Shown in pieces: positions 16,423 through 61,581 of a DNA stretch of 64,000 nt; the first letter of the stretch is position 1, and each line of letters starts with the position of its first letter. Below the pieces are notes generated by a model. The model saw only the letters and a program-made list of their open reading frames with translations, had not been told where the DNA came from and ran no database searches. The stretch spans positions 9,537-73,536 of the forward strand of contig CADAFC010000001.1 of the NCBI GenBank assembly GCA_902787095.1, given 5' to 3'. A program made the translations under genes and the position numbers. Source of the stretch: an uncultured Bacteroidia bacterium (GTDB lineage Bacteria > Bacteroidota > Bacteroidia > Bacteroidales > F082).

Positions 16423-16424
16423 GG

Positions 16425-17195
16425 CTATCTTACCAAAAGCTTTTTCACAACATTTTTGGTTTTTTGCATTAACAATTCCTTGGTCCATGGGACGATGTTG
16501 TCGTTCCAGCGCTGAGGATGTGTCGTCATCATAATCTGATGCGGCATACGTTCTTTGTTGACGGCTTGAATTATGTCGTCGGTGGAATGAAACACCAGTC
16601 CTTCTGAGCACCAGCGGTCCTGATGCATTGGAATTTTGTCGCGCACGCTCACTTTGAATCCGTCCCAGCGGCGGCCAGTGTCGGTGAGATAAAACATCTG
16701 GGAGAAGTCGATGTCGAAATACGGCTCACCGAGGATGCTGAAGTCGCGGTAGGACTTGGCTTTCCACAGTTCTCTGTTATCGTATTTAGAGCGCGGGCTT
16801 CCGTGCATACATATAGTGGTGACGGGAGCCAGCACTCGTAATTTGTTGAGGTTTGTCTCAAAATCAAGGAGAGCCGCTGTTGTGTCGCCATTACAGGTGG
16901 CAAGCGACTCGTAATGATAGCCTATTTCGTGCCCCAGTGACGCAATTTCTTTGATAATCACTTCGTCCCAGCTTTCTGGGACGGCTCGGAAATAATATGA
17001 TGCCTTCATCCCGAGCGAGGCCTCGATGCGAGCTGTAGCCAGAGAGTTTTTCGGTTTCTTATCCACGTCGTGGCGAAGTATCACGAGACGTGCCGGACGT
17101 GTTATCTTCATATATTCGGCAAAGGTTATTGTGACATAACCTTTACTTTGCAATGCTGTGAGCAGTTCCCGATATTTCTTCCTTGTGAAATCCAT
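16425..17195 (-). CDS. Polysaccharide deacetylase-like (CE4-like) protein; last gene of the glycan locus
   Basis: 256 aa with RHDVD and HEIGYH motifs resembling CE4 metal and catalytic motifs. It starts 10 nt downstream of the wzc-like gene. The family call is from memory and is moderate. Confidence 0.55.
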   Translation of the reverse strand: MDFTRKKYRELLTALQSKGYVTITFAEYMKITRPARLVILRHDVDKKPKNSLATARIEASLGMKASYYFRAVPESWDEVIIKEIASLGHEIGYHYESLATCNGDTTAALLDFETNLNKLRVLAPVTTICMHGSPRSKYDNRELWKAKSYRDFSILGEPYFDIDFSQMFYLTDTGRRWDGFKVSVRDKIPMHQDRWCSEGLVFHSTDDIIQAVNKERMPHQIMMTTHPQRWNDNIVPWTKELLMQKTKNVVKKLLVR

Positions 17196-17205
17196 AATTC
17201 CGATG

Positions 17206-19683
17206 CTATTTTCTCTTCAGGCTCCAGAGATGACGTCTATGGCTGTGTTTTTTCTTGTCTTTGTCTTCATCGTTGCCATAGCCGTAGCCATATCCGTAAC
17301 CATAGCCATAACCGTAGCCGTAGCCGTAACCATAGCCATAGCCGTAGCCATAGCCATAACCATAGCCATAATGTCCGTAATGGTTGTATTTCTCATAGTC
17401 GACGTCGTTAAGGAGAACCATCATGTTAGGGAACTCGTTATTGTCTTTGAGGTGTTGGATATCAGGAAGCATACGTTTGTCGACCAGACCAGAGCGTAGC
17501 ACGAACACAGACACGTCGGCCAGACGTTTGATGATAGTGGCATCTGCCAAGATTCCTGCCGGCACAGCGTCGATGATGATATAGTCGTAATTATCACGCA
17601 GCCAGGCCACCAGTGTGTCGAGACGGTCGCTTGAGAGAAGCTCTGACGGGTTTGGCGGCAATGAGCCCGATGGGATGCAGTCGACGCCGGCAGCCACCAT
17701 GTTTGGCACAATAATACTCTGGAAATCGTCGATTCTTCCCGACAGATAGTCGGAGGAGCCTTCACGATGACGCATACCGAATTTACGTGTCAGTGTACCC
17801 TTACGCAAGTCGAGGTCGAGCAGCACGACGCGTTTGTCGACCATTGCGAGGCTGGCCGACAGGTTGGAAGTGAGGAATGTCTTACCGGAGCTTTCCATCA
17901 GTGACAAGAACAGATAAGAAGTTGCTTTGTCCTTGCTTTTGCGAGTATATTCCATATTGCTTCGCAATATTCGGAACGCCTCGGAGATGGCATTTCTCTT
18001 CTTGCTGTCGACCACGATGAGACGGTCGTCTTTCTTGGAGTTGGTCGGAATTTCTCCCAAGAACGGTATGTCAAGATAATTCTCAACATCTTTGCGGAAG
18101 CGTATCTTTGTGTCGAGCATTTGTCTTAAGAAGAATATCACCATTGGGAACAATAATCCGAGGATGATGCCAGTCAATGTCATTTTTTTGACCTTAGGGG
18201 ATACCGGTTCCGGGTTTACTCGGGCTCTATCTATTATTCCTGCCTTGCCCTCGATGGATGGAGTGCTCATGAGCAATTCCTCTCTTCTTGTAAGAAGTGC
18301 AAGATAAAGACCTTCCTTAATACTTTGGACACGTGTTATATTATCGAGATATTGTTGACCGCTTGGGATGATGCTGATTTTTTCTCTGGCTTGTTTTTCC
18401 GCATTTTTCACAAGTTGGATTTTCTGCTGCATTGACACTATATATGAATCCAGAAGTTGGTTCAGATTGCTTTTCAGCGCAGCCAGTTCAAGTTGCATAG
18501 AGTGTACAACAGGATTGTTGGTGGTACCAGATTTATTATATTTATCAAGTTGAAGGACAAGCTGGTTAAAATCAGATATAGTTTGAATGATATTGTCATC
18601 ATTAACATCTATTGTCAGTGGGAATAGCCTGTTTTCCTCATTATCAGCTGTAAACTGTTTCAGATATGTTGCATGAGAGATCTGTGCCTTTAATCGTTCT
18701 TGTTCGTCGGCGGCATCTTTAATGGTAGCCATATATGCCTGTCCATAATCATCTATGTTAATAAGGAGGTTATCGCTTTTGAACGATGCTATTTCGTTTT
18801 CCTTGACACCCATTTCCTTGTCAAGTTGCACAATACGGTCGTTGATAAACTTGGATGTTTCAAGAATAACCCTTTGTTGTTCCTTTACTGAGTTCTGATT
18901 ATACACAGCCACCATAGTATTAAGGATGTCGGCAGCTCTTTCGGCGGATTTATCCCTAATTGAAAACTCAAGAATTCCTGCCGCATCTCTGCCGGTGTTA
19001 ATAGTTATAGCGTCTCTGTAATATGCGACCACGTCATAAATATTACGTCTTACCACATCAATTGTCGCTCCGATATAGCTTTCACGATACGCCCAAGTCG
19101 GCAAGACACAGATACGACCTATATTAGTGGTCGAAAGTGTGTCGCCAAGATGTCCCTCAACAACTGTCTCATCAGGAAACATCAGTGAGACGAGCGAGTC
19201 ATTTCCCAATACAACTGACAACCCGACATTATCACGCTCATTGATATCCAGGAACTGGACCTCGATTGGAGTATCTTGATATAAATCCTTTTTTCGTTTG
19301 ACGATCTTGGTTTCATACAGATATGTTGTATTAAGATTCAGCAGTTGCACGACCTCCAACATTGATGTTTCAGACTTCAAGATAATGATTTCGTCGTTCA
19401 GTGCTTTTGTCATGGCCCTGTCTCTGAGGCTCATTATCTGTTCCAGTTGCGACACCATTGTGTTTTGTGGAGTTTCGTAAATCTTAATTTTACCATGGCT
19501 TTCATAAACCCGGTCTGTTCTGTCACCGATATACCATGCGATGACACCGCCTATTGCCGCGCAAATAATCAGCCAGTGCAGATTATGGAGAATGGTGTAC
19601 ACGACATCCTTGAAAGACAATGCATTGGCATCTTTTTTATCAAGGAAGGAAAGGTCGTTGTTCTGATTGTTGTCTTGTGTCAT
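17206..19683 (-). CDS. wzc: Polysaccharide co-polymerase/tyrosine autokinase (Wzc/PCP-2a-like) with a (YG)16 C-terminal tail
   Basis: 825 aa with an N-terminal Wzz-like domain carrying two TM helices and a long coiled-coil periplasmic region. The C-terminal BY-kinase has Walker A (MESSGKTF), A' (VVLLDLDLRKG) and B (DYIIIDAVP) motifs and a Tyr-rich tail. Confidence 0.9.
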   Translation of the reverse strand: MTQDNNQNNDLSFLDKKDANALSFKDVVYTILHNLHWLIICAAIGGVIAWYIGDRTDRVYESHGKIKIYETPQNTMVSQLEQIMSLRDRAMTKALNDEIIILKSETSMLEVVQLLNLNTTYLYETKIVKRKKDLYQDTPIEVQFLDINERDNVGLSVVLGNDSLVSLMFPDETVVEGHLGDTLSTTNIGRICVLPTWAYRESYIGATIDVVRRNIYDVVAYYRDAITINTGRDAAGILEFSIRDKSAERAADILNTMVAVYNQNSVKEQQRVILETSKFINDRIVQLDKEMGVKENEIASFKSDNLLINIDDYGQAYMATIKDAADEQERLKAQISHATYLKQFTADNEENRLFPLTIDVNDDNIIQTISDFNQLVLQLDKYNKSGTTNNPVVHSMQLELAALKSNLNQLLDSYIVSMQQKIQLVKNAEKQAREKISIIPSGQQYLDNITRVQSIKEGLYLALLTRREELLMSTPSIEGKAGIIDRARVNPEPVSPKVKKMTLTGIILGLLFPMVIFFLRQMLDTKIRFRKDVENYLDIPFLGEIPTNSKKDDRLIVVDSKKRNAISEAFRILRSNMEYTRKSKDKATSYLFLSLMESSGKTFLTSNLSASLAMVDKRVVLLDLDLRKGTLTRKFGMRHREGSSDYLSGRIDDFQSIIVPNMVAAGVDCIPSGSLPPNPSELLSSDRLDTLVAWLRDNYDYIIIDAVPAGILADATIIKRLADVSVFVLRSGLVDKRMLPDIQHLKDNNEFPNMMVLLNDVDYEKYNHYGHYGYGYGYGYGYGYGYGYGYGYGYGYGYGYGYGNDEDKDKKKHSHRRHLWSLKRK
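17275..17370. repeat. Hexanucleotide microsatellite (RCC-RTA)x16 encoding (Tyr-Gly)16 of the Wzc tail
   Basis: I counted 16 consecutive 6-nt units (gccata/gccgta/accata/accgta/tccgta) directly in the sequence. On the minus strand they read TAY-GGN x16. Confidence 0.95.
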
Positions 19684-19697
19684 ATTTTATTGTTTTT

Positions 19698-20477
19698 TTA
19701 TTTGGCAAGGAGAATTAATGCTGTTAATAATGAGGCTATGGATGATACATAACCGATTACTGTCAGGAGCTGGCTTGTTGATTCCATAAAGTTCTTATAT
19801 GCACGGTCGCGAGTAATAATGAAGTCGTTTTGTTGGAGCATATAGAACGGGTCTTCAAACACTTTTGAGTCGCGCGGGTCGAGATAACGCATCACCATTT
19901 TGCCGTCGACCTCGCGCAGAACCGCGATTTTGTTACGGTTGGTGAATACGTTGAGGTCGCCCGACATGGCCAAGGCCTCCAAGAAAGTACAACGCTCATT
20001 GTCTATGGTTATTGCCCTGCCTCCGTTAGAACCCAGGAAAAATATCTTGAAGTTTTGGAAGCGCACCATGACGAATGGATCGCTAAGATATCCGCCATCT
20101 ACAAGCAGGTTGGTAATATGTTCCTGTAATTTAAGTCGAGTCAAGCCGCCAACATGAATAGTGCCCAACACTGGAAATTCTATATTACCAGATTGATCCA
20201 CCAGGTAGCCAATACGGCGGTTGTTGCCATAAACATTAGAATACTGGCCTACATCAAGATTAAAAGGTTTAGCCAGCAACTCGTCGGAGCACGACACTAT
20301 GATAGTCAATTCGTCATAAGGACTTATCACTGCTTCAAACTTGTTTTCCAGTTCAATTTGTGTACCATTTTCCATATCCTGCAAGTATGCCACCTGTTTG
20401 GTGGTGACGCAGGAATTCAGCATAAGTGTTATTGCTGTAATGACAAAACAAATGTAAAGTAATCTTTTTGTACGCAT
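19698..20477 (-). CDS. wza: Polysaccharide export outer-membrane protein (Wza/OPX family)
   Basis: 259 aa with a lipoprotein-type signal (LMLNSCV). It has a Poly_export-like N-domain and an SLBB-like domain (FFLGSNGGRAITIDNERCTFLEALAMSGDL). It is adjacent to wzc. Confidence 0.85.
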   Translation of the reverse strand: MRTKRLLYICFVITAITLMLNSCVTTKQVAYLQDMENGTQIELENKFEAVISPYDELTIIVSCSDELLAKPFNLDVGQYSNVYGNNRRIGYLVDQSGNIEFPVLGTIHVGGLTRLKLQEHITNLLVDGGYLSDPFVMVRFQNFKIFFLGSNGGRAITIDNERCTFLEALAMSGDLNVFTNRNKIAVLREVDGKMVMRYLDPRDSKVFEDPFYMLQQNDFIITRDRAYKNFMESTSQLLTVIGYVSSIASLLTALILLAK

Positions 20478-20484
20478 ATAGATT

Positions 20485-21582
20485 TTATTTAAAATTCAAT
20501 TGATAATCAGGGTTTTGTTTCATAATATCTCGGCTTTCGGGATAGTTTTCGATGAACCATGTCAGGAATTTGGCATAATCAATCTTCTCGGAGAGCATTT
20601 TTTGGCGACGTTGGGCGCAAACTTCCTTGCGGTCAGGTGTATCGAGCCAACGCTGGATAGATGCTATGAAGCCTTCGGCGTCATTTGTTTTGTGTCCGAA
20701 TCCGAGCTGATATATGTTTTCAAGCTCGTTCAGGTATGAAAGGCGTCCCACGAAGTCGTTGAAACGCACGAATGGCACGCCCAGCACTCCGGCCTCAGCC
20801 GCCATTGTCTGGCTATCGCCTATGTATAATGAGGCGAACGCCATAACATGATGCATATCCAGTGGATTAATTTTGATTCGATATTGCTCAAACTGAGGCT
20901 CCAAAGGACGTTCCGAGGTGATATATACGGGGCCTTCTTTGCTTACCATATCAAGGATGCGCTGTGCTATTTCGGTGTTGATACCGTGTATTCCCACATC
21001 GTGATGTGCGGTCAATTGGGCAAAACGGATCAGAGTGTATGGTTTAGTTGTATCGATGCCATATTGTTCCACTTTTGCTTTATCAGGCTCAAACTGGTTA
21101 GGATGCAGGTAGCCAAGCTCATGATATGACTTATATCCAATCTTTTTCTTATCCCATTTCCATGCGCTACAGCAGTCGGGACAGATGACGCCTGTGTAGA
21201 AAGGGAAGAACATCTTCGCATAGAGAGAAATTGCCTCTGCGTCATCTTCCGAGCACTCGAAAGCCGGTTTTCGCATCAGTTTTCCGACATAGGCTAAGAC
21301 GCCGTCAGAGCCTACAAGGATATCGGGATGCTCACGGCGAGCGATTTTCCATGTCTCCAAAGTCTTTCCCATCAGCGAGAAACCCAGCCCAAGCAGGCCA
21401 AAGCGTTTAGGTCGGTCTTTCACCTTGTAAAATGTCATTCCGGCGTTCTGGCAAAGGCTTTCCAGCACGTCTTTAGGACGAATCACGACAACCACCTCAT
21501 GACCGTCGCGACGCAAATTGTCAATCGTATACCGGAACATATGGAAATGTGCCGGATGCGATATCATAAAAAGAATCTTCAT
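20485..21582 (-). CDS. DUF354 family protein (GT-B/epimerase-like fold)
   Basis: 365 aa. The N-terminus MKILFMISHPAHFHMFRYTIDNLRRDGHEV is typical of DUF354. Confidence 0.65.
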   Translation of the reverse strand: MKILFMISHPAHFHMFRYTIDNLRRDGHEVVVVIRPKDVLESLCQNAGMTFYKVKDRPKRFGLLGLGFSLMGKTLETWKIARREHPDILVGSDGVLAYVGKLMRKPAFECSEDDAEAISLYAKMFFPFYTGVICPDCCSAWKWDKKKIGYKSYHELGYLHPNQFEPDKAKVEQYGIDTTKPYTLIRFAQLTAHHDVGIHGINTEIAQRILDMVSKEGPVYITSERPLEPQFEQYRIKINPLDMHHVMAFASLYIGDSQTMAAEAGVLGVPFVRFNDFVGRLSYLNELENIYQLGFGHKTNDAEGFIASIQRWLDTPDRKEVCAQRRQKMLSEKIDYAKFLTWFIENYPESRDIMKQNPDYQLNFK

Positions 21583-22529
21583 TGTTTGTTAAAATATGTA
21601 GGCACCATCAAAAGATGGTTGACAAGTTTTTCGGCATTAGGGCATTGGCCTTGGATATAACCAAATTCCTTCGCCCAATTAATTGAATTGGCGAAGTGTG
21701 TGTCGGTGTCAATGCCTTTTTTCCCATATAACTCCTGTTCTTCTTTAGGATTTTCACAATAAATAACCTGCATAAAGGCAGCACGGGGCACCACTTTGTC
21801 TTTCTCAGCTGAATATATGTTACTTATTCCGCGGCACATTTTCATCGGGTTGATGGGGCTCCTCCCCGACTTGACGGGGCGTTTGCGTTTCATCGGCAAA
21901 GTCAGCCAGCCATAAACCATACGTTTATTCAAAACCGCCATTCCAAGAAGCTTTATAAAGAGCTTTGTCTTTTGGCAACAAGAATAATCCGGTAATTTTT
22001 CATAATCTGTTTTTATTTTTTGTAAATATTTGTCATTAAGAACTTTAAGTATTCCGCCGTCACCTATTGAAGGATGTTTGCCTTGTCCGATGCTGAACAC
22101 TGCGAAATCGCCGTAAATATTGTCCAAACCATAAGCATGGGCGCAGTCCTCGATGACAAGCATATCGGGACACGTCTTTTTGATAGCCTCCACGTCGTTA
22201 ACCATTCCGAAGAGGTGTGTCACCACGATGGCTGACATGTCATTGGCTTTACGTTTAAAATCCTCTAAGTCGAGCTTCAAGTCGTCGTTCACATCAATGA
22301 AAACCATTCTTAGTCCAGCCTGTTCCACTGCATTGGCGACGGTATGGCAGTTGTAAACCATCACTCCGACGCCGCAGTTTTCGGGCAGTCCTGCGGCTTT
22401 CAGCGCGAGCAGGATACCACATCGGGCATGATTCAGCAGAAACTCGTTTTCGGCTGGTGAATAAGGCTTTCCGAACCAGAATTCTTTTTGGTAACGCAGC
22501 GGAAACTCTATTTGAAGACGCGGGATCAT
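21579..22529 (-). CDS. Short DegT/DnrJ/EryC1/StrS-like PLP enzyme (aminotransferase-like)
   Basis: 316 aa. It matches the DegT core pattern (CHTVANAVEQAGLRMVFIDVNDD..., VTHLFGMV, VIEDCAHAYG, FSIGQGKHPSIGDGG with a candidate PLP lysine). It is shorter than canonical members. Confidence 0.65.
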   Translation of the reverse strand: MIPRLQIEFPLRYQKEFWFGKPYSPAENEFLLNHARCGILLALKAAGLPENCGVGVMVYNCHTVANAVEQAGLRMVFIDVNDDLKLDLEDFKRKANDMSAIVVTHLFGMVNDVEAIKKTCPDMLVIEDCAHAYGLDNIYGDFAVFSIGQGKHPSIGDGGILKVLNDKYLQKIKTDYEKLPDYSCCQKTKLFIKLLGMAVLNKRMVYGWLTLPMKRKRPVKSGRSPINPMKMCRGISNIYSAEKDKVVPRAAFMQVIYCENPKEEQELYGKKGIDTDTHFANSINWAKEFGYIQGQCPNAEKLVNHLLMVPTYFNKQ

Positions 22530-23455
22530 TACTTTTTCAGGATTTTCACGGCCATTTCCCCGAGTTTATACAAAGGTTTGTTGCAGATATATTTAAATCT
22601 GCCGTATTCCACCAGATTGCCGCCGAATTTGGCTTTGAACTCGCGCACTCCATAGCCGCCGTCGCCGGGGGCGCCGGCGCCCATCATGTCGAATGTTTTT
22701 AATCCGTTGTCAACAGCGAACTGAATGCCGTAGTATGTGGCTACAGTGGAAGGAAAGATATTGTTATAGACGCCGTCTTTACCGCAGGCGAACCACTCGT
22801 AAAGCGTTTCATCGTCATGGATGCACAAGGTGCCGCCTATTATTTCGTCGTTGTATTTTACCAAAATGAACTTTGAGAAATCGGATTCCCATAATTTTAT
22901 GAAGAACTCTTTCGGGAAGAGTGGCGTTTTCACTTTATTCTTATAAAGATTCTTCAAAATATGATAAAATTCCGTCACTTCAGCCTCGGTCGGGTCGCAT
23001 GTTATTGTCACGCCATGTTTGATGGAGGTGTTGACATCCCTTTTACGGCTCTTGCCCATGTGTGAATCCACGATTTCTTTATTGCTTGTATCCACCAGGA
23101 AATCGTAATGAGGCTCATAAGCGAAACCCATTTTCTCGAATATCGGACGGACGTGTGAATAATCCGCGAAATTGCGTGTTTCGATATATATCGCTTTATG
23201 TTTAAGGCCGTCGGCACATTGTTTCAGAAGAGTTTCAAGTTCTGTGCCGCTGATATCGTCTGCCAGCCACGGGCCTCCGTTGATTATTGCCCGACGTGAG
23301 AAGAATCTCTTCAGCAAGCCGCCTTCTTTTTGGACAAACCCTTGAATCACACCGACTTCCTTACCAGAACGCTCCACTGAGAAACGGAAAGGCTCCAAGA
23401 ATCCTGTAGACTCCAGGAAACTATAAAACTCTTGTTTTTGGAAAACAGACTTCAT
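22529..23455 (-). CDS. FemAB-like / GNAT-fold acyl(aminoacyl)transferase
   Basis: 308 aa. The overall pattern resembles FemAB-family proteins found in EPS loci (two GNAT-like halves, C-terminal FDMMGAGAPGDGGYGVREFKAKFGG). No search was run. Confidence 0.55.
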   Translation of the reverse strand: MKSVFQKQEFYSFLESTGFLEPFRFSVERSGKEVGVIQGFVQKEGGLLKRFFSRRAIINGGPWLADDISGTELETLLKQCADGLKHKAIYIETRNFADYSHVRPIFEKMGFAYEPHYDFLVDTSNKEIVDSHMGKSRKRDVNTSIKHGVTITCDPTEAEVTEFYHILKNLYKNKVKTPLFPKEFFIKLWESDFSKFILVKYNDEIIGGTLCIHDDETLYEWFACGKDGVYNNIFPSTVATYYGIQFAVDNGLKTFDMMGAGAPGDGGYGVREFKAKFGGNLVEYGRFKYICNKPLYKLGEMAVKILKK

Positions 23456-25784: not shown

Positions 25785-25789
25785 TGAGT

Positions 25790-26509: not shown

Positions 26510-26521
26510 GTTTAAACAAAA

Positions 26522-29980: not shown

Positions 29981-29992
29981 AGGACAACATAT

Positions 29993-33239: not shown

Positions 33240-33241
33240 AG

Positions 33242-36455: not shown

Positions 36456-36456
36456 A

Positions 36457-39262: not shown

Positions 39263-39275
39263 ATTATTGAAGGTT

Positions 39276-41164: not shown

Positions 41165-41165
41165 A

Positions 41166-42473: not shown

Positions 42474-42479
42474 AAAAAA

Positions 42480-44797: not shown

Positions 44798-44863
44798 TTC
44801 GTAATCAATGTATTAACAATCCTCTCCGCCTATGTGCATGCGCCAGCTATAATTGTTATTTTT

Positions 44864-51666: not shown

Positions 51667-51679
51667 AATTGATACTTCA

Positions 51680-52402: not shown

Positions 52403-52406
52403 ATTT

Positions 52407-53447: not shown

Positions 53448-54838
53448 AATCGTGCTTCCCTGAAGGTGATGGCAGAAATCAGACTGCGCGCCGCACTGTT
53501 CAGATAATTGTTATACGTAGCAAACAAAAGTATCTGACTGAGAGTCATCCAACAGTAGTTTTCTTCCACTTCAATGGAGAAATCTTCTTTCACTTCAACA
53601 ATGACATTAAGATTCTGTTCTTGGAAAAAACGACCGCCTTCTTCACTTTGATAACAGCTATACCAGATATTTTCTTTCGGTGCGTTTAATATAGTATCCA
53701 AATACGGGACCACATATTCATTTTTCCCGACACGATAATTTCCGGTAAGACATTGAACCGTCGGTGCCATTTCAATAATGTCGAAATTACCAGCCTCAAG
53801 CTTCGCTTGAACAAGAAAGTGATAAACGCCATTTATTTTTTTCACCAGAAATCCCATTATACCTTCCTGTAAAGAGTGAATCATCGGCTGATCCCAACAC
53901 GGCACCTCCCGATTACTTATCTCAGACCTAACGCCAATCACTTCAAAAAACTTGTTATCTTCATGGTGGAGAGTATCGCCATCGAAAACCCAATGGTTCA
54001 TATTTGATATCCCAATGGAAGTAACAAGCAGTTCATATCTGCACTTAAGTGAAGACATCCAATGAATTATATCATCAAGTGTGTGCAGATTGTTCTGTGT
54101 GCTCAGTAAAGATTGAAACTCTTTTTGGGGATAATCGCCATACTTTATACAAGATATAACAGATCGGCTGTCCATATTTATCACATTAGGGTATCGTAGC
54201 AGTTCCTTAATCTGGCCAAGCGATAACCATATATAATTGTCCTGTATCTCTATCTGCTCATTCTCGCCTATTTCCACTATGACATTCCGATTGCGTTTCC
54301 TGAGAAAACGCGCTCCCTGCTCCGACTGCAGTTGATCCAAAAGAACCGTCACGTTCTTTTCCCCGGTAAAATACTCCAAATAAGACGGCTTTTTACCACC
54401 ATGAATCCGCAAATAATTGCTGCGGGTTGCTTGTATTGTGGGTGACAGCTGGACAACATTTATATTGCCTGGTTCAATTTTGGCTTGTACCAGGAAATGC
54501 AGCACACCGTCGATTTTCTTAGTTAAAAAGCCCAGCAAACCTATTTCCGGCTGGTTTATAATCGGCTGATCCCATTCCGGTTTTAGTCCGTAGTTCGTTG
54601 CGACACGAATGCCATCGATGCTGAAGAACTTCCCGGAATCATGTCTGATTCGGTCATCGCCAAACTTCCAACCATTCAGCTCACTAATAGGGATTCTGTA
54701 TGATTTCGAATATACTTCTTTTCGCTGTTTTTCAATCCACTTCAGTGTGTCTGCTGTACTGATAAAAGCTCCCTGACTCATCGCTGAGATCAGAAAATCA
54801 AGCTGCTTATTATCAGTATTTCCAATATTCATAACCAT
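53444..54838 (-). CDS. NDP-hexose 2,3-dehydratase (EvaA family, duplicated Nudix-like domains)
   Basis: 464 aa built from two internal homologous halves. Each carries the family pattern (WDQPIINQPEIGLLGFLTKKIDGVLHFLVQAKIEPGN...LSPTIQATRSNY and CWDQPMIHSLQEGIMGFLVKKINGVYHFLVQAKLEAGN...MAPTVQCLTGNY). Confidence 0.88.
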   Translation of the reverse strand: MVMNIGNTDNKQLDFLISAMSQGAFISTADTLKWIEKQRKEVYSKSYRIPISELNGWKFGDDRIRHDSGKFFSIDGIRVATNYGLKPEWDQPIINQPEIGLLGFLTKKIDGVLHFLVQAKIEPGNINVVQLSPTIQATRSNYLRIHGGKKPSYLEYFTGEKNVTVLLDQLQSEQGARFLRKRNRNVIVEIGENEQIEIQDNYIWLSLGQIKELLRYPNVINMDSRSVISCIKYGDYPQKEFQSLLSTQNNLHTLDDIIHWMSSLKCRYELLVTSIGISNMNHWVFDGDTLHHEDNKFFEVIGVRSEISNREVPCWDQPMIHSLQEGIMGFLVKKINGVYHFLVQAKLEAGNFDIIEMAPTVQCLTGNYRVGKNEYVVPYLDTILNAPKENIWYSCYQSEEGGRFFQEQNLNVIVEVKEDFSIEVEENYCWMTLSQILLFATYNNYLNSAARSLISAITFREARL

Positions 54839-54844
54839 TGGGAT

Positions 54845-55732
54845 TCAAATATTTTCAGCAAAAGCATCAAAGTGCTTATATGTAATATCTCCAAGCAACT
54901 GCTTTATTTTTGTGTCATCAAAATAAGTATGACCACTCTCTATACATAAATCACGTTCAGGCCATGGCACATTAGTCACTTTCACTCCGAACCTGTCAAC
55001 AATTTTTTGAGCGGCCTCACGTATGGTCAGCACTTCTCCCCCGATGTTATATATACCACCAACACTTTCCGATTTCATCGACCCTTCCACCATCTGATAG
55101 CATAAATCATCAATATGTGTAAACGTTCGCTTTTGTGAGCCATCGCCATATAATGTGATATCACTGCCAGATGACGCCTTCTTCAAAAAAGCGCCGACTG
55201 TTCCGTATGAATACTTTGTGGAAATGTTATTACCATAAGGAACACATATCCTAAAGATTGTAAAAGGGATGTTAAAACTATTGTAATATGCTTTCAGATA
55301 TCCTTCGCAAGCCAGTTTGTTAACGGCATAAATGGTTTTTGTCTCTTTTTCATCGTCTTCAGTCAAAGCTTTGTCAACACCTTTATAAACCAACCGTGTT
55401 GATGGGAACACAACCCTCGGACGATATGGGGATTCTTTGATGGCATCAAGAAGATTGAGCAAACCGGTTTCATTTACGGCGACATATTTCTCATACGCAT
55501 CAAATCCGGCAAGTGTCCCCGATAATCCGGCAAGCATAAAAACCATGTCAACATCCAAATCAATAACACCAACCGTTTCCTTCTTCGTAACATCAACATA
55601 ATGGGACATGTCGTGCGATAAACCATAGCAGTCTGCCTGTATTGAATAATGGTCTTGCAGGTATTTCACCAGATTCTGTCCGATATACCCGTCAGCACCC
55701 AAAACCGCTATGCGTTTACCTGAATCCATCAT
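54845..55732 (-). CDS. NAD(P)-dependent SDR (candidate NDP-4-keto-sugar reductase)
   Basis: 295 aa with the Rossmann motif VLGADGYIG and a Y-x3-K motif (YAVNK). Confidence 0.75.
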   Translation of the reverse strand: MMDSGKRIAVLGADGYIGQNLVKYLQDHYSIQADCYGLSHDMSHYVDVTKKETVGVIDLDVDMVFMLAGLSGTLAGFDAYEKYVAVNETGLLNLLDAIKESPYRPRVVFPSTRLVYKGVDKALTEDDEKETKTIYAVNKLACEGYLKAYYNSFNIPFTIFRICVPYGNNISTKYSYGTVGAFLKKASSGSDITLYGDGSQKRTFTHIDDLCYQMVEGSMKSESVGGIYNIGGEVLTIREAAQKIVDRFGVKVTNVPWPERDLCIESGHTYFDDTKIKQLLGDITYKHFDAFAENI

Positions 55733-56676
55733 GCTTTATTGATAGTGTTGAATTCCAAATCAGGTTTCATTATTCCCAAAGGCCATAAAACATACCGTTT
55801 TATTATCCAATTAATGGATTTGTTTTTGGGAGCGGAAGGCAATTTATGTGACCAAGGGGATATTCTCTTGTATGATTTCCATTCTTCAGAGAAAGGCAAA
55901 TGATAATACACTACAGACCACGGTTTTATCATAAACCCATAATGTATTATTAGTGGAGAGTTGGAAAGCTTTATTATTTCTTTTTGTACATCAGGAGACT
56001 GGCAATTATAAACTATATCCCTCAAATATGTTATCAGATAATTGTACTTTATGGAAACGAACCTTTTCTCATCCCATAGTACGGCATTTAACACATCCTG
56101 ATCACAAATTATCAGCTTGTCATAATTGTTCTTAATATATGTCAGGCAACGTTGTCCCACATTGTTTAGCCGCCAATAGTCAAGGTTTATTAGCAACATT
56201 CCCCCGTTAAAATAGCCCGCTTTTTCCGGATACTCCAATCTATACTGCCCTCTCTCGCGACTGATGCAGTAATCCTGCACCACCGCCAGAGCTTGCCCTG
56301 TGATATCGATATTCCATAATTCAGCCAAATCTCCAGTAACAATCATATCCCCATCCAAATACAAAACCTTATCAATCGATTCAGGCAATAAATCACCGGC
56401 AAAGACTTTGTAAAAAGTAGCGACAGACCATCTGTTCGGTAATAACAGTTCCTTAATGTCATTAATATCAACATTGACAAACTCTATACTGTTGCCATAT
56501 TTGGTTTCTAATTTGTGAAACTTTCTCTGATTACGTTTACTTAGCGGCTTCCCGATTAAAATGTATACATTAAATGAATGACTTTTGTTATTTTCAAAAA
56601 CAGACGTCAGCATGACTCCGCAATATGGAGCATAATTGTCATCAGTAACACTGAAAATATTTATTGTATCACTCAT
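55729..56676 (-). CDS. GT8 family glycosyltransferase
   Basis: 315 aa with INIFSVTDDNYAPYCGVMLTSV, YLDGDMIV (DXD) and GYFNGGMLLINL. Confidence 0.85.
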   Translation of the reverse strand: MSDTINIFSVTDDNYAPYCGVMLTSVFENNKSHSFNVYILIGKPLSKRNQRKFHKLETKYGNSIEFVNVDINDIKELLLPNRWSVATFYKVFAGDLLPESIDKVLYLDGDMIVTGDLAELWNIDITGQALAVVQDYCISRERGQYRLEYPEKAGYFNGGMLLINLDYWRLNNVGQRCLTYIKNNYDKLIICDQDVLNAVLWDEKRFVSIKYNYLITYLRDIVYNCQSPDVQKEIIKLSNSPLIIHYGFMIKPWSVVYYHLPFSEEWKSYKRISPWSHKLPSAPKNKSINWIIKRYVLWPLGIMKPDLEFNTINKA

Positions 56677-57656
56677 ATTAAGGCTCTATATATTCTGTCA
56701 AACCTTATTTTCAACACTCTGGATAGCCTTTTCTTGAAAGATTGTATCGTTTTGCAATTCAGATAGGTTATTGATGTATGCCTTACTATCTTTTTGCATT
56801 CACATCTCACATTCTGCAAAACGTTGGTCCCTTGAACCAAATCAAGTAATGTGGCCATGTAAATATAAAGAAACTCCAGTGTATATCTGCGACAACAAGC
56901 GGGTTTTATATTCATAGTGCGAAAATTATCATATAAAATCCGAATGACACACAATTTGCTGTTGATATTATAATTCGCCGAAGAAATGGCAGATGACTGG
57001 CGGTACACCCAAAAATACAGCGCTTCATCAACATAGATGATTCGTGGGGCTTTTTGATAAACCTTCAAACTGAAATCACAATCTTGGGCATACCTGTAAT
57101 TGCCAGTGCGAATATCGTTTATCAGATCCCTCCTGTATAATTTATTCCATATATTCCTTCCTGTGAAATGTTCCGTGGGACGCACAAACACTTCAAGCAC
57201 ATCTTCCAAAGTTTTCTCGACAAAATCCGGCTTTATCTCCGACGATGTATCCTTATCAAAATGACTGGTATGCTCATATCCGACAAATGCCACATCATAT
57301 TTGTCTCCTGAAGCATTTGTCCGATTAATCGCCTCATACATTATCTTGATGATGTCCTTATGGAAATAATCATCTCCGTCGGGAAACCACAAGTATTCCC
57401 CATGTGCCACATCCTGTCCGGTGTTTCTGGCTGCCCATAAACCCCTGTTCTCAGGATGATGGATTACTCGGGCACGGGGGTCTTTGGCCGCAAACTCATC
57501 ACAAAGCTGCCCAGAGCCATCGGAAGACCCGTCATCAACAAGAATTATCTCCAGATTCTTATATGTCTGCCTTTCTATGCAGTCCAAACATCGTGGGAGA
57601 TAATTCCCGATGTTATATACGGGAACGATGACACTGACCAGAGGTTCCATTTTCAC
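56673..57656 (-). CDS. GT2 family glycosyltransferase
   Basis: 327 aa with VSVIVPVYNIGNYLPRCLDCI, VDDGSSDGS and FPDGDD. Confidence 0.85.
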   Translation of the reverse strand: MKMEPLVSVIVPVYNIGNYLPRCLDCIERQTYKNLEIILVDDGSSDGSGQLCDEFAAKDPRARVIHHPENRGLWAARNTGQDVAHGEYLWFPDGDDYFHKDIIKIMYEAINRTNASGDKYDVAFVGYEHTSHFDKDTSSEIKPDFVEKTLEDVLEVFVRPTEHFTGRNIWNKLYRRDLINDIRTGNYRYAQDCDFSLKVYQKAPRIIYVDEALYFWVYRQSSAISSANYNINSKLCVIRILYDNFRTMNIKPACCRRYTLEFLYIYMATLLDLVQGTNVLQNVRCECKKIVRHTSITYLNCKTIQSFKKRLSRVLKIRFDRIYRALI

Positions 57657-58528
57657 ACCGTATCCATGAAGCTCTTCTGCACCTTATTAAATATTAATAT
57701 GCCGAGAGCCAGCACCACTATCATAAATCCGAAGCTGTAGGCGAGCCAGCCCCAGCCGATAAAATGGCTCGCGCCGAGAAATCCGTGTTTGAACGTCTCG
57801 ATAATCGGCGTCACCGGGTTGAGGCACATCAGCGTGGTGAGGTCGAAACCTGCCACCTTCTTGCCTGCCACCTGACTCAAAGGATAGACAATAGGTGTGG
57901 CATACATCCACAACTGCACCAAAAACGAGAACAGCACCTGCAAATCGCGGTACTTGGTGGTCAATGATGAGATTATGGTGCCGAAACCAAGTGCCAGTCC
58001 TGCCATCATTATCACCAAGATAGGAAACAGCAGAGCGTATAGGGTCAGATGGGCGTTACATGTTGGGTTGAACAGCCAATAGCCTATATATATCACCACA
58101 AACAGTCCGAACTGTATGCTGAATCTCAGCAGGTTACTGGTGACATCGGCCAGCGGCATCACAAGACGGGGAAAATATACTTTTCCGAATATGCCGGAGT
58201 TGTTGACAAAAGTATTCGATGTCTTTGTCAGACAGTCGGAAAAATACTGCCACATGCAGATTCCGCAGAGGTAAAACAGCGGTTGTGGCACTCCGTCGGT
58301 AGGGATGCCGGCGATGCCGCCGAACACCACCATATACATGATTACCGTCAGGGCTGGCTGTATGAGCCACCACAACGGTCCGAGCACAGTCTGTTTGTAT
58401 TGTGTTATGATGTTTCTTTTAACGAAAAGGGCGCATAAATCACGATAGCGCCACAATTCTTTAAAATCAACTGAAAAAATGCTTTCCTTTGGCTTTATGA
58501 CCAAATCCCAGTCTTTAGTTTCTGCCAT
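57653..58528 (-). CDS. wzm: ABC-2 type polysaccharide exporter permease (Wzm/TagG-like)
   Basis: 291 aa with 6 TM helices. The N-terminal pattern is typical of Wzm/TagG (ELWRYRDLCALFVKRNIITQYKQTVLGPLWWLIQP). Confidence 0.88.
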   Translation of the reverse strand: MAETKDWDLVIKPKESIFSVDFKELWRYRDLCALFVKRNIITQYKQTVLGPLWWLIQPALTVIMYMVVFGGIAGIPTDGVPQPLFYLCGICMWQYFSDCLTKTSNTFVNNSGIFGKVYFPRLVMPLADVTSNLLRFSIQFGLFVVIYIGYWLFNPTCNAHLTLYALLFPILVIMMAGLALGFGTIISSLTTKYRDLQVLFSFLVQLWMYATPIVYPLSQVAGKKVAGFDLTTLMCLNPVTPIIETFKHGFLGASHFIGWGWLAYSFGFMIVVLALGILIFNKVQKSFMDTV

Positions 58529-58530
58529 AT

Positions 58531-59667
58531 TTAGTTAGATCGTTTTCTTTTGAACAAAATATTGCCGATTATGTGCCAGAAATAGCGCCAATCGGTACGG
58601 AACGGATGTTTCCTGTAGGCTTCAATGTACTTTTTCTCTGATTCCTGAATCTCTTCGAGTGTCTCAGGTGTCTTGTCTTCGTAATAGAACGGAGGCATCA
58701 GTCCTGGCTTCACGCTGATGTGCATCTGCTGCATCTCAGGGGTGTACATATTGAAGTATGCCGAACTCAAAGGACGCACGCCCACCAGCTTCATCTCACC
58801 TCTCAGCACATTGATTATCATTGGCAATTCATCATAAAGATTGCTCCGGAACAGGCGGCCCCACATGTTGATGCGATAGTCGTCTTTGTATTTGCCGCCT
58901 CGTTGCAGGCCCTCGCGCTCCATCATGTAAGGCTGCAGATACTCCGAGTAGGCATACATCGTCCTGAATTTATAGACTTTTATCTGTTTCCCATGGTATC
59001 CGACGCGGCCGAGTTTGATCATTAATCCATAGTTACGGGCTTTGGTGCGACGAGGTTCTTTTGCCTTTTGTCCCAGCACGTAAAACTCACCCATGCTGAA
59101 GCGTTCGTCGACGATGTCGAAACCTGCACGGCATATCCTGCCCAGAATCTCCACCCTCGGGTAAGAGCGGTTCTTGCCTTTTGTAACCCAAAAATAGAAC
59201 CAGCGGGTAAGATACAGCTTGGAAAAGACCCTGTGCCAGACGTAGTAGTTAACGCTCCACAGCTTGCCTCTTATGCCAGGGCAGGCGTTCAGCAAAGACT
59301 CACGTTTCAGTGCCGCGGTACGCGAGTGGCACCACAGATAGCCGCCGTCGGCAAGAGCATCGTTAGCTGTGCTTAGAAAGGTATCAAGGTCAGGAATATA
59401 TGACAGACCTTTTTTGTTGAGGATAAGCTCAGGTTTCGACTCCTCCAGTTTCTTGATATCCTCTATCTTGTCGGTGTCGATGATAGCCGTGGTATCCTGA
59501 AGCTCATCGGCATGTTTGTCCAACCATTCAGCTATAGCATCCGACTTACGGCCATTTATTGCTTTAAGAATGACTGCCAGATCAGGGTATGTAACGTTGT
59601 CCACATCCAGCTTCGCGCCTTCCCTTACCCCTCTTTCAGTGTAGTCCCTAAGATCTTTGTTTTTCAT
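58531..59667 (-). CDS. Phosphoglycosyl transferase (bacterial sugar transferase family) with an atypical N-terminal domain of about 190 aa
   Basis: 378 aa. The C-terminal catalytic core is present (KVYKFRTM, DELPMIINVLRGEMKLVGVRPL). The N-terminal half is not hydrophobic and looks like a degenerate methyltransferase fold (ALADGGYLWC..., GFDIVDE). Confidence 0.8.
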   Translation of the reverse strand: MKNKDLRDYTERGVREGAKLDVDNVTYPDLAVILKAINGRKSDAIAEWLDKHADELQDTTAIIDTDKIEDIKKLEESKPELILNKKGLSYIPDLDTFLSTANDALADGGYLWCHSRTAALKRESLLNACPGIRGKLWSVNYYVWHRVFSKLYLTRWFYFWVTKGKNRSYPRVEILGRICRAGFDIVDERFSMGEFYVLGQKAKEPRRTKARNYGLMIKLGRVGYHGKQIKVYKFRTMYAYSEYLQPYMMEREGLQRGGKYKDDYRINMWGRLFRSNLYDELPMIINVLRGEMKLVGVRPLSSAYFNMYTPEMQQMHISVKPGLMPPFYYEDKTPETLEEIQESEKKYIEAYRKHPFRTDWRYFWHIIGNILFKRKRSN

Positions 59668-59676
59668 TACTTAAAA

Positions 59677-60864
59677 TCATTCTTTGATAGTCGTAATCAA
59701 CACGCAACGGCTGAGTTCTTTTTCGTCGTAGAACATATAGTCGACACCGCCCTTGTAGTCGATAACCAATGTCGCCGGATCCACGCCGCATTCATTAACG
59801 AGGAAGTTAAACACCGCATGTGCACGGTTTTCCGAAAGCATGAGGTTGTGTGCCGGAGTAGCCGTCTGCTTGTCGGCGTAGCCGCAGATGAGATAACGTT
59901 GTCCCGGGAGGCCCTTCATGGCGTCGGCATAAGCATGCAGGTTAACCTTCTCCTTGTTCGAGATGTCCCAACGGTCTATCTGGAAGATTATATGGAACCA
60001 GAATTCAGGAACCTGTTTCTCTTTTATCACGACAGTGTCGGTAAGCATGACTGTGTCGGGACGCACCGCTTCGCCAAGATGCAGGATTTCGGTTGTACGG
60101 CGGGCAGGATTCCATTTGCTCATCTTCTTGCCGAGCAATATTGACAAACCTGCAGTCACTCCGAAGTTGCCGTCCATCTTGACATTTGCCTTGCGGTGAC
60201 TCATACTTGGCTCCACCACATATATCTCACCGTCGAAATCGTCGGAGAGGAGAGCGCCTCTTACGGCAATCATAAACCTCACATAATCGGTGATTTTGAA
60301 TTTGTTGATAACGCCAATATTGAACATGCCGCTTCGCACGCCTATGACGTTACGGAGGTCAAGATGTGCGAGGGCATAGTACTGAGTGAACCAGCCTCTC
60401 TGTTTTTTGAGTTCCATATAGTCATACTTGGGGTCGGCGCGTGTGTAGAAATCGTCGGTCTTGAAGTTGGCGACATACCACGTCCCCGCGTCTCTCGACT
60501 GATACAGTCCCTTGAAACGGGCAGTGGTGATGCCTAAACTGATACCTATTGAAGGTGACGCCCATTTGGTAATCTGAAAATCAATTGCGGGGAAGGCTAT
60601 CATCTCTGTGAAATCCTTCACCTTGTCGTCGTTTTCTCCATAATAAAGATGCGGACCTATACCGGCGACAAACTCCCAGTTATGCCAGAATCCGTTTGTG
60701 AAAAAGACCTCTTTCTCCACCACTGTGGTGGTGATAATCTTAACCGAATCCGTTACTGTTTCCTCAACAATGGTATAAGACTTGCCTTTTTTGTTTTCCT
60801 GTGCGAATAGCATGCACGGAATCAGCGTCAAAATCATAACCAATACTGTTATCCGTTTTCTCAT
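59677..60864 (-). CDS. OmpA-family outer-membrane protein
   Basis: It has a signal peptide (MRKRITVLVMILTLIPCMLFAQ). The C-terminal OmpA domain is present (ICGYADKQTATPAHNLMLSENRAHAV). The start is set at ATG 60864. Confidence 0.8.
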   Translation of the reverse strand: MRKRITVLVMILTLIPCMLFAQENKKGKSYTIVEETVTDSVKIITTTVVEKEVFFTNGFWHNWEFVAGIGPHLYYGENDDKVKDFTEMIAFPAIDFQITKWASPSIGISLGITTARFKGLYQSRDAGTWYVANFKTDDFYTRADPKYDYMELKKQRGWFTQYYALAHLDLRNVIGVRSGMFNIGVINKFKITDYVRFMIAVRGALLSDDFDGEIYVVEPSMSHRKANVKMDGNFGVTAGLSILLGKKMSKWNPARRTTEILHLGEAVRPDTVMLTDTVVIKEKQVPEFWFHIIFQIDRWDISNKEKVNLHAYADAMKGLPGQRYLICGYADKQTATPAHNLMLSENRAHAVFNFLVNECGVDPATLVIDYKGGVDYMFYDEKELSRCVLITTIKE

Positions 60865-60886
60865 AATTACGTTTTTATATAAGTTG

Positions 60887-61513
60887 TTATACATTAAGTT
60901 CCAACCAAGAGCTCTCAACCTCCACTGAGGCTGAGCCCAATATATCGAGCGACACGTAAAGACGCCGTCTGTTGTCTTCAGTACGCGTCACCGTGCCCTC
61001 CAATCCTGCAAGTTTGCCAACCACAACACGCACTTTGTCGCCGGCAGAATATGACATTCCCGTCTCCTCAAAGGTGACGGGCAGCTCATCTTGTTCGAGC
61101 ATACGGCGGAATATCGCCATCTCTTTGTCGGGGATGACAGCCGCAGAGGCTCTTCCATCTATATTATCGCGACGCGACGGGTCTACCATAAAACGATAGA
61201 TATAAGGCAACGTCACAACGTTCTTCAATCTTTCGTTTTCTGTCGTGCGCACAAAGACCTTTGACGTAAGCACCAATTTGTCAACCCATTTTTTACGACC
61301 GCTGGCGTACTGCTTAAACACGCGTTGAACCGGAATATAGTTTTCATATCCGAGCTCCGTGAGCCTCTTCCCACAAATCTTTTCGCTTCCATGTTTCACG
61401 ATGGCGACAAACCAACGTTTTTCTTCTGAAAACGCTATGCCTACGGCGTCGGCTGCGACATTTGCAGTCGTATTTGTAGGATAAACAACTATTCGTGTTG
61501 TACGAGCAACCAT
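60887..61513 (-). CDS. UpxY-family (NusG-like) transcription antiterminator, first gene of the locus
   Basis: It has a NusG-like NGN region (KRWFVAIVKHGSEKICGKRLTELGYENYIPVQ) and a KOW motif (GDKVRVVVGKLAGLEGTV). The ORF-track start (61576) is a TTG inside the -7 box, so the first ATG (61513) is used. The true start may be further in. Confidence 0.8.
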   Translation of the reverse strand: MVARTTRIVVYPTNTTANVAADAVGIAFSEEKRWFVAIVKHGSEKICGKRLTELGYENYIPVQRVFKQYASGRKKWVDKLVLTSKVFVRTTENERLKNVVTLPYIYRFMVDPSRRDNIDGRASAAVIPDKEMAIFRRMLEQDELPVTFEETGMSYSAGDKVRVVVGKLAGLEGTVTRTEDNRRRLYVSLDILGSASVEVESSWLELNV

Positions 61514-61573
61514 ACAAACGATTGAAAACGAGACACTTACGAAAAATCGTTTCGCTATCTCTAAAAACAACTG

Positions 61574-61581
61574 CAAAAATA
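61574..61581 (-). promoter_or_regulatory. Bacteroidetes-type -7 promoter box (TAnnTTTG) for the upxY-led locus
   Basis: The minus strand reads tatttttg, about 60 nt upstream of ATG 61513. Confidence 0.4.

Follow-up and report, generated by a model that had tools for sequence, protein, structure and literature searches.

A 64,000-nucleotide window of contig CADAFC010000001.1, from an uncultured rumen Bacteroidales bacterium, carries a predicted surface-glycan locus in which an ATP-binding cassette (ABC) transporter of the Wzm/Wzt type shares one gene array with a Wzc tyrosine autokinase and a Wza-like export protein. All coordinates refer to this window, the whole stretch of DNA analysed, and genes are numbered g01-g44 in transcription order (61513 to 16425). 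The list of open reading frames (ORFs) gives 44 successive ORFs on the minus strand, from 61576/61513 to 16425, over ~45 kb; the first gene, upxY, probably starts at the ATG at 61513 and not at the longest-ORF start at 61576. When longest-ORF starts are used, 4- or 1-nt overlaps occur at 20 of the 43 junctions, and the biggest positive gap measures 66 bp (44798-44863). Wider apparent overlaps (-17 to -127) are artefacts of the longest-ORF choice, since homologues of g37, for example, begin at Met45, giving a protein of 468 aa. A preliminary description of this DNA had already reported a 44-gene, one-strand locus of about 45 kb with 66 bp as its largest gap, and the ORF list bears this out. Gene content was assigned by Pfam and NCBIfam profile searches of the 44 proteins, all of which are encoded on the minus strand.

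The ABC transporter consists of one permease and two ATPases. The Wzm ABC-2 permease g04 (57653-58528; ABC2_membrane 55 bits) has as its best NCBIfam model the galactan-export Wzm/RfbD, the mycobacterial galactan exporter. Wzt1 (g18, 43508-44797) and Wzt2 (g20, 41166-42473), of 429 and 435 aa, score 74 and 80 bits against ABC_tran, with TagH and galactan-Wzt as their best NCBIfam models. Precomputed matches place a Wzt_C domain (PF14524) in the C-terminal ~170 aa of both, where the two proteins diverge: they are 67% identical overall by alignment; judged by eye, their nucleotide-binding domains share ~88% identity and their C-terminal domains ~40%. As far as the two sequences tell, the pair seems to stem from a recent duplication after which the C-terminal domains diverged, and two Wzt genes in one locus were not seen in any related locus examined. 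The Wzt genes flank (41166-44797) a gene for a membrane-anchored beta-propeller protein, g19 (42480-43511), which resembles glycoside hydrolase family 43 weakly (Glyco_hydro_43, 34.5 bits; cut-off 32.2), possesses an N-terminal hydrophobic helix and has no sequence match in PDB.

At the other end of the array lie the components of a polysaccharide co-polymerase (PCP) and outer-membrane polysaccharide export (OPX) system. The Wza-like OPX lipoprotein g42 (19698-20477; Poly_export 57 bits) is short, at 259 aa, and ends in a C-terminal hydrophobic helix. Wzc (g43, 17206-19683) is an 825-aa protein with a GNVR region and a tyrosine-kinase domain (TIGR01007, 125 bits; cut-off 108), Walker A, A' and B motifs and, at its C-terminus, a (GY)n tail that contains over 20 tyrosines; these features identify it, at the level of prediction, as a genuine PCP-2a autokinase. 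The GY dipeptide run is unusually long and regular; an imperfect tandem repeat of 6 nt encodes it (17275-17370, minus strand; 16 copies, 81% matches), so the length of the tail might vary by slippage. Spacing in the Wza/Wzc region is tight, with gaps of 7-14 bp between co-oriented genes, and the last gene of the array, g44 (u256, 16425-17195), encodes a conserved 256-aa protein that accompanies Wza and Wzc; it has no family match in Pfam or NCBIfam and is 43-73% identical in related loci. Convergent with the locus is a gene for a CpsB/CapC-type PHP tyrosine phosphatase (15715-16422, plus strand; PF19567, E=2.6e-30). Its stop codon lies 2 bp from that of g44, and therefore an intergenic terminator has no room between them. 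The same phosphatase adjoins Wzc in three related loci (L008, L019 and L039) and is a likely partner of Wzc. None of the 44 proteins matches Capsule_synth, the Pfam family of KpsC/KpsS. The inventory of the preliminary description (Wzm, two Wzt, a PCP-2a Wzc and Wza) holds under both profile libraries.

No Wzx flippase or Wzy polymerase was detected in the locus by sequence or by fold. A hydropathy scan leaves g17 and g37 as the only unassigned polytopic proteins, the other polytopic ones being Wzm and the GtrA-like g15. The polytopic proteins were searched against Pfam to E<=10 and against NCBIfam to 0.1, and neither search gave a match to a MOP flippase (Polysacc_synt), nor did Wzy_C match in Pfam even at E<=10. 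For g17 and g37, homologue alignments were built, structures were predicted and the models were compared with PDB by Foldseek. The g17 model (pLDDT 87, pTM 0.90) has glycosyltransferases (GTs) of the GT-C fold as all of its top 21 matches (Pmt4, STT3, ArnT, PglB, AftA and ALG3/9/12), and so does the g37 model (pLDDT 77, pTM 0.82) in all of its top 17 (STT3/OST, AglB, PglB, DPY19 and ArnT; probability 0.99-1.0). The flippases MurJ and WzxE reached a probability of no more than 0.16 with either model, and the ligase WaaL a probability of 0.20 and a TM of 0.22 with g37. Among 40 homologues of g37, 21 match PMT_2 and seven an Alg9-like family, and none matches Wzy_C, Polysacc_synt or any flippase or polymerase family. 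The protein g17 has no sequence-family match and no sequence match to any solved GT-C, and profile searches (A1, A2) against PDB sequences returned nothing. A Wzx or Wzy hidden among the unannotated proteins was rejected as a candidate explanation: g17 and g37 are GT-C by fold, and g27, g30, g41 and g44 are soluble. The two polytopic proteins were also considered as paralogues, which an hhalign probability of 0.2 speaks against. The two GT-C-like proteins and the missing MOP/PST-type flippase of the preliminary description are thereby upheld by Pfam, NCBIfam and fold, with the qualification that a small flippase of the GtrA type is present and that the 513-aa g27 is soluble.

That flippase belongs to a cluster of three adjacent genes (g15-g17, 44864-47611): a GtrA-like small flippase (g15; GtrA_DPMS_TM 82 bits), a 242-aa GT2 protein (g16) that best matches, though below cut-off in each case, the NCBIfam models of the polyprenyl-phosphate glycosyltransferases PgfS, ArnC and PpgS, and the 546-aa GT-C protein g17. 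Together they form a predicted three-component periplasmic glycosylation module, in which g15 would be the small flippase for a polyprenyl-phosphate-linked sugar.

The second GT-C-fold protein, g37 (24378-25784), is here called GTC468 and serves as the marker of this type of locus. In the predicted model its 468 residues form membrane helices throughout, and neither a flippase nor a synthase gene adjoins it. Its leading Foldseek matches, STT3, AglB and PglB, raise the alternative that the locus serves protein or envelope glycosylation, with GTC468 moving an ABC-exported chain linked to undecaprenyl diphosphate (Und-PP) en bloc to a protein or other envelope acceptor. GTC468 is also far more conserved than the surrounding glycosyltransferases, as would be expected of an enzyme that reads only a conserved reducing end and an acceptor, and its locus type in relatives often includes PglD- and PglE-like genes beside the phosphoglycosyl transferase-like gene discussed below. 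However, GTC468 lacks the large periplasmic domain typical of oligosaccharyltransferases, ArnT and DPY19 match it about equally well, and the PMT_2 and Alg9-like models matched by its family describe enzymes that use polyprenyl-monophosphate sugar donors. A conserved Wza/Wzc pair would, moreover, be needless for such a process, and we regard this alternative as very unlikely.

Immediately 5' of wzm lies g03 (58531-59667), a protein related to the phosphoglycosyl transferases (PGTs) and here called PGT*. It consists of a Bac_transf core (residues 218-369) that matches only positions 38-176 of the Pfam profile, preceded by a conserved soluble N-terminal domain. The core aligns to residues 317-427 of WbaP and 50-141 of PglC, the YDELP motif is kept, and the Asp-Glu dyad (D279 and E280) is invariant in 23 homologues. 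The N-terminal re-entrant membrane helix of monotopic PGTs was found neither in g03 nor across the family alignment; g03 has no hydrophobic segment, with no 19-residue window exceeding 1.0 on the Kyte-Doolittle scale. Residues 1-217 show faint similarity to the methyltransferase fold. The family has many members and is conserved from end to end, and wzm follows directly 3' in all eight contexts examined; in relatives (L041-L047), PglD-like and PglE-like genes often precede PGT*, after OmpA-family and NusG/UpxY genes. The preliminary description had taken g03 for a PGT initiator. The retained catalytic dyad fits that assignment, whereas the missing hydrophobic segment leaves the initiator role insecure. 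PGT* may prime undecaprenyl phosphate, perhaps with Wzm keeping it at the membrane, or it may instead add a sugar-phosphate cap.

The same architecture recurs widely. Identical genes occur on rumen metagenome scaffolds, and the NCBI copies are annotated merely as "sugar transferase" or "hypothetical protein [Bacteroidales bacterium]". GTC468 has more than 2200 homologues, the best 120 of them at 59-97% identity. A scan of species-representative genomes identified 34 GTC468 loci, nearly all in metagenome-assembled genomes (MAGs) of uncultured Bacteroidales from rumen, deer, horse and similar guts, and further metagenome contigs also carry it. The relatives share a conserved, co-oriented order, GT2-GT32-GTC468-GT4-(FemAB or ATP-grasp)-DUF354-like-u256-Wza-Wzc. 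Wza lies downstream of GTC468 in 17 of the 26 loci with a full 10-kb flank, and Wzt or Wzm lies upstream in every locus with a variable region short enough for it to be seen. Most related loci also carry the GT32 protein encoded beside GTC468 (g36), at 53-87% identity. A compact version of ~22 kb (L037) reads PGT*-Wzm-Wzt ... GTC468 ... Wza-Wzc; no MOP flippase was found in it, and a 470-aa ORF of such compact relatives that was considered as a flippase proved to be AMP-binding-like. A close relative (L048, GTC468 88% identical) has a partly different central gene set. Because the co-oriented architecture recurs in related genomes and across species, a chance fusion of several operons, which would have spoken against a single system, was rejected. 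Three Bacteroidales-type GTC468 contigs (L014, L018 and L033) sit in MAGs labelled Erysipelotrichaceae, Clostridiales and Fibrobacter, for which binning contamination is a more likely explanation than transfer.

Conservation of this order bears on a second alternative, according to which the locus makes an O-antigen or an extension of lipooligosaccharide: the ABC-exported polymer would be ligated to lipid A-core by GTC468 or a WaaL encoded elsewhere and reach the surface via Lpt, and Wza, Wzc and CpsB would form a general capsule-export module serving Wzx/Wzy loci in trans. A Wzm/Wzt pair with Wzt_C is a hallmark of O-antigen export (PMC11127046), PCP-2a proteins usually partner Wzy systems (PMC12220298), and the Wza and Wzc genes stand at the extreme end of the cluster, beside housekeeping genes. 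Nevertheless, these genes are co-oriented and tightly spaced, and their synteny with the GT-C module holds across species, compact loci included; the window encodes no WaaL-like protein, and GTC468 is unlike WaaL in fold, at the probability of 0.20 given above. An O-antigen locus of this kind is, in our estimate, unlikely.

Between the two export modules lie the sugar cassettes. A 2,6-dideoxyhexose cassette (52407-55732) comprises a 4-ketoreductase-like short-chain dehydrogenase/reductase (SDR, g07), a nucleoside-diphosphate-hexose 2,3-dehydratase (g08; Hexose_dehydrat E=1e-151) and a GFO-type 3-ketoreductase (g09). Next to it, a putative CDP-ribitol/ribitol-phosphate cassette (49715-52402) encodes an IspD/TarI-like cytidylyltransferase (g10), an SDR (g11) and a LicD phosphotransferase (g12). 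The g10 protein scores 131 bits against the ribitol-5-phosphate cytidylyltransferase model, below the cut-off of 166, and the putative assignment of ribitol to g10-g12 draws on such sub-threshold matches together with gene context. A UDP-galactopyranose mutase (g14; GLF E=7e-79), which shares the interval 47611-49718 with the GT2 protein g13, would supply galactofuranose (Galf). Two FdtA-type 3,4-ketoisomerases (g24 and g25) and a DegT aminotransferase (g26) make up a 3-amino-3,6-dideoxyhexose cassette (36457-38383). RmlA, RmlB and GDP-fucose genes were not found in the locus. Taken together, the in-locus genes show a predicted capacity to supply 2,6-dideoxyhexose, 3-amino-3,6-dideoxyhexose, Galf and a CDP-alditol/LicD phosphodiester substituent. 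The preliminary description had listed five unusual constituents: these genes support the two deoxysugars, Galf and, with the sub-threshold matches noted, ribitol, but not fucose, for which the evidence is a single GT11 transferase (g22).

The Leloir glycosyltransferases of the locus number about 16-19, in agreement with the ~17 first counted; they are predicted to be cytoplasmic and fall into families GT2, GT4, GT8, GT11, GT32, GT61 and GT92-like. Upstream of the cassettes are a GT2 and a GT8 gene (g05 and g06, 55729-57656), and downstream of Wzt2 are a GT92/GT2_4-like gene (g21), the GT11 gene of the fucosyltransferase family (g22) and a GT2 gene (g23; together 38384-41164). A variable glycosyltransferase block (g27-g35, 26522-36506) encodes the soluble g27, GT2 proteins (g28, g29, g34 and g35), a 671-aa weak GT2 (g30), a GT61 (g31), a further weak GT2 (g32) and a hexapeptide acetyltransferase (g33). 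It is followed by the GT32 gene (g36, 25790-26509; Gly_transf_sug), the conserved neighbour of GTC468, and, beyond GTC468, by a conserved 3' module (20485-24378) of a GT4 (g38), a FemAB-family protein (g39), a short DegT-like protein (g40) and a 365-aa DUF354-like protein (g41). A phmmer search of g19, g27, g30, g41 and g44 against PDB gave nothing useful. The FemAB-family protein (22529-23455, minus strand) belongs to the aminoacyl-tRNA-dependent transferases, and three relatives (L004, L037 and L041) carry ATP-grasp or AMP-binding enzymes in its place, sometimes together with an alanine-dehydrogenase-like gene. This gene content suggests an amino-acid-substituted sugar in a conserved part of the glycan.

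GC content is 0.40-0.41 at 50000-58000, where the dideoxyhexose and ribitol genes lie, against 0.46-0.49 at 16000-18000 and 58000-60000. A lower-GC centre between conserved end modules is consistent with horizontally exchanged cassettes, and a variable centre of lower GC is typical of O-antigen and capsule loci. By comparison of gene contents, the overall pattern matches a serotype-variable locus with a conserved initiation/export module at one end and a conserved processing/export module at the other.

Expression of the array may start from a single leader region. The first gene (g01, 60887-61513) encodes a UpxY-family, NusG-like antiterminator with NusG and KOW domains (NF033644, 115.4 bits; cut-off 100). 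Upstream of it, the Bacteroidetes-type -7 box TATTTTTG can be read directly at 61574-61581 (minus strand), ~60 nt 5' of the upxY ATG, so that both the UpxY leader and the -7 box proposed in the preliminary description are present. A canonical -33 TTTG at 17-23 nt from this box was not found. The -33/-7 Bacteroidetes promoter pattern has no coding-strand (minus) match within the locus, including the 66-bp gap at 44798-44863, and its total number of matches in the whole window is not above chance; a sigma-70 promoter and terminator scan is uninformative for Bacteroidetes. An Rfam scan of the window gave no matches. A search for invertible-promoter repeats near the upxY promoter returned weak inverted-repeat pairs only. 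One 15-nt inverted repeat with 87% complementarity and 87 nt between its arms (61461-61475 and 61563-61577) lies on both sides of the upxY start codon and reaches into the end of the -7 box; it may form a leader hairpin or have arisen by chance. Divergent from the upxY promoter region are genes for a BlaI/MecI-type repressor (61760-62122, plus strand), also present upstream of the locus in one relative (L047), and for a BlaR1 (M56)-TonB_C fusion (62205-63998+, plus strand). The rest of the window is housekeeping in character (DnaX, RseP, FabD, FolE, PorP/SprF and an S41 peptidase).

Following upxY, the second gene encodes a 413-aa OmpA-family protein (g02, 59677-60918), in which a signal peptide and an N-terminal domain of ~290 aa precede the C-terminal OmpA domain. 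Proteins of this kind (413-437 aa) are the conserved second gene after NusG/UpxY, at the position that UpxZ takes in Bacteroides loci, and in four relatives (L041, L045, L046 and L047) the gene lies just upstream of PGT*-Wzm. A conceivable role for g02 is to partner the short Wza in the outer membrane.

The breadth of the gene set raises a third alternative, in which at least two glycans are encoded head-to-tail, for example a variable ABC-exported polymer (g03-g35) and a conserved glycoconjugate (made by GTC468 and the other products of g36-g41), both expressed from internal promoters of their own; the two Wzt proteins would then serve different products. Sixteen to 19 glycosyltransferases and four sugar cassettes exceed the needs of one repeat unit, the two Wzt proteins have different C-terminal domains, and the 3' module is conserved next to a varying centre. 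Yet there is a single Wzm and, apart from GtrA, no second flippase; no gap exceeds 66 bp and no coding-strand promoter pattern occurs inside the array; and both modules are kept in the compact loci. Two such independent glycans appear quite unlikely.

We consider it probable that this is a lineage-typical, serotype-variable locus for a capsule- or exopolysaccharide-like surface polysaccharide, in which an ABC-dependent route is joined to a Wzc/Wza exporter. Under this proposal, the whole polymer, or perhaps two of them or two terminal caps, would be built on undecaprenyl phosphate at the cytoplasmic face, after priming by the Wzm-adjacent PGT-like enzyme or by a WecA encoded outside the locus. 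The Wzt C-terminal domains would recognise capped chains, and Wzm/Wzt would flip them. In the periplasm, GtrA, GT2 and g17 would add a side-chain sugar from a polyprenyl-phosphate donor, and GTC468 would perform a step that is independent of the variable structure and acts on the conserved reducing-end region, either adding a conserved residue or moving the chain en bloc onto its final acceptor. Wzc and Wza, cycled by the CpsB-type phosphatase, would then carry the product through the outer membrane, and UpxY would keep RNA polymerase processive over the very long operon.

Several points weigh against this proposal. The GT-C fold matches of g17 and g37 are moderate (TM 0.39-0.47, E ~1e-3), and Wzy sequences are notoriously divergent, yet no polytopic protein is left unassigned in the locus. 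The initiator role of PGT* is insecure for the reason given above. No WbdD-like chain terminator matched in the locus; the candidates for that function (LicD with CDP-alditol, g27, g30 and PGT*) are none of them assignable. That the array forms one antitermination-dependent 45-kb transcript we infer from the UpxY leader and gene spacing. Furthermore, since reviews pair PCP-2a proteins with Wzy-dependent systems and PCP-3 proteins with ABC capsules, Wzc and Wza could serve another, Wzx/Wzy-made glycan encoded elsewhere in the genome. Finally, all relatives are MAGs or metagenome contigs, and the system is known from its genes alone.

A bolder extension of the joined ABC and Wzc/Wza route is that uncultured gut Bacteroidales possess a fourth export wiring, in which a helix-less PGT-like enzyme acts at Wzm/Wzt or docks on it, complete Und-PP-linked chains are flipped by the O-antigen-type ABC transporter, GTC468 processes or transfers them regardless of their variable structure, and Wzc/Wza gate export without Wzy. 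We regard this as possible though doubtful. If it holds, the bacterial tyrosine kinase cycle would control export itself and not polymerisation. In current models, PCP-2a tyrosine kinases are linked to Wzy-dependent polymerisation, and why phosphorylation cycling is needed is an open question; a PCP-2a/OPX pair coupled to an ABC exporter without Wzx/Wzy would separate export gating from the control of polymerisation and make that question testable. The significance of the locus would rise if Wzc and Wza depend on the ABC route. Beyond this, the abundant but uncultured rumen Bacteroidales that carry the locus are likely to have a major surface glycan of variable antigenicity, which would be relevant to interactions with phages and hosts, and the locus flags two uncharacterised conserved families, the helix-less PGT-like protein always found beside Wzm and the minimal GT-C.

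Below, we compare the locus with characterised systems. ABC-dependent O-antigens with Wzt proteins bearing carbohydrate-binding modules (CBMs) and with chain terminators have been described (PMC11127046). The systems of E. coli O9a, K. pneumoniae O12/O2a and C. youngae O1/O2 resemble the present locus in Wzm, in Wzt with Wzt_C, in cytoplasmic Leloir assembly, in the absence of Wzx/Wzy and in their variable genes. Unlike them, it has two Wzt paralogues, a PGT-like protein encoded within the locus in place of a distant WecA, and a PCP-2a kinase and OPX protein in the same array under a UpxY leader, with no recognisable WbdD-type terminator and no WaaL in view.

Three-component GT-C side-chain addition is known from ABC-type loci of Klebsiella (O2) and Citrobacter youngae (PMC11127046). 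The g15-g17 module, lying side by side in an ABC-type locus, is similar to Shigella/Salmonella GtrABC, Klebsiella gmlABC and C. youngae GT136 (PMC11127046). It differs in that g16 is short (242 aa), GtrA is the separate protein g15 and g17 lacks a match to any solved GT-C, and in the presence of a second, unrelated GT-C (g37) without an adjacent flippase or synthase.

Group 2/3 capsule systems (KpsMT-KpsE-KpsD) likewise export a cytoplasmic polymer through an ABC transporter, a PCP and an OPX protein, and OPX surveys treat the OPX/PCP pair as common to both routes. In reviews, PCP-2a kinases belong with Wzy-dependent systems and PCP-3 proteins with ABC capsules (PMC12220298). Here, however, a PCP-2a autokinase ending in a (GY)n tail takes the place of a PCP-3, the OPX protein is short and Wza-like and not KpsD, and the transporter is a CBM-bearing Wzm/Wzt-like one, with no KpsC/KpsS match.

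Capsular polysaccharide (CPS) loci of Bacteroides also begin with UpxY in a long, one-strand operon, and a tyrosine recombinase lies upstream in some relatives. With 44 genes, the present locus exceeds the usual size of a Bacteroides UpxY capsular locus. It differs further in having ABC export in place of Wzx/Wzy, no convincing invertible-promoter repeats and no UpxZ-like second gene, as judged by gene size and position, the libraries containing no UpxZ profile.

In Gram-positive cell wall polysaccharides that are rich in rhamnose (Rha-CWPS), an ABC-exported rhamnan is decorated by GT-C enzymes (PMC9574508). Lactococcal and streptococcal Rha-CWPS and mycobacterial arabinogalactan share with the present locus a cytoplasmic backbone, Wzm/Wzt export and elaboration outside the membrane by GT-C enzymes with lipid-linked donors (PMC9574508); the likeness to arabinogalactan extends to Galf and to the mycobacterial galactan exporter as the best NCBIfam model of Wzm. 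Those systems, though, belong to monoderm or mycolate bacteria, in which LCP ligases attach the polymer to peptidoglycan, whereas this one is diderm, with OPX and PCP-2a proteins and no LCP in the locus.

In the open-access literature, no characterised system of the same composition was found, in keeping with the preliminary description, nor any characterised Wzm/Wzt system in Bacteroidales/Prevotella, any ABC plus PCP-2a system, or any characterised example elsewhere in Bacteroidota. The claim that the locus mixes routes kept apart by textbooks stands for the pairing of a PCP-2a protein with an ABC exporter, but not for its other parts: ABC export with GT-C enzymes is not new, because it has been described (PMC11127046, PMC9574508), and PCP and OPX proteins with ABC transporters are likewise on record (PMC12220298). 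The locus recombines known modules and adds no new kind of machinery. What is unusual, and lies outside the textbook, is the linkage of an O-antigen-type Wzm/Wzt to a PCP-2a kinase and OPX protein without Wzx or Wzy, to which a conserved minimal GT-C, a helix-less PGT-like protein, a duplicated Wzt and a UpxY leader without UpxZ add further atypical features.

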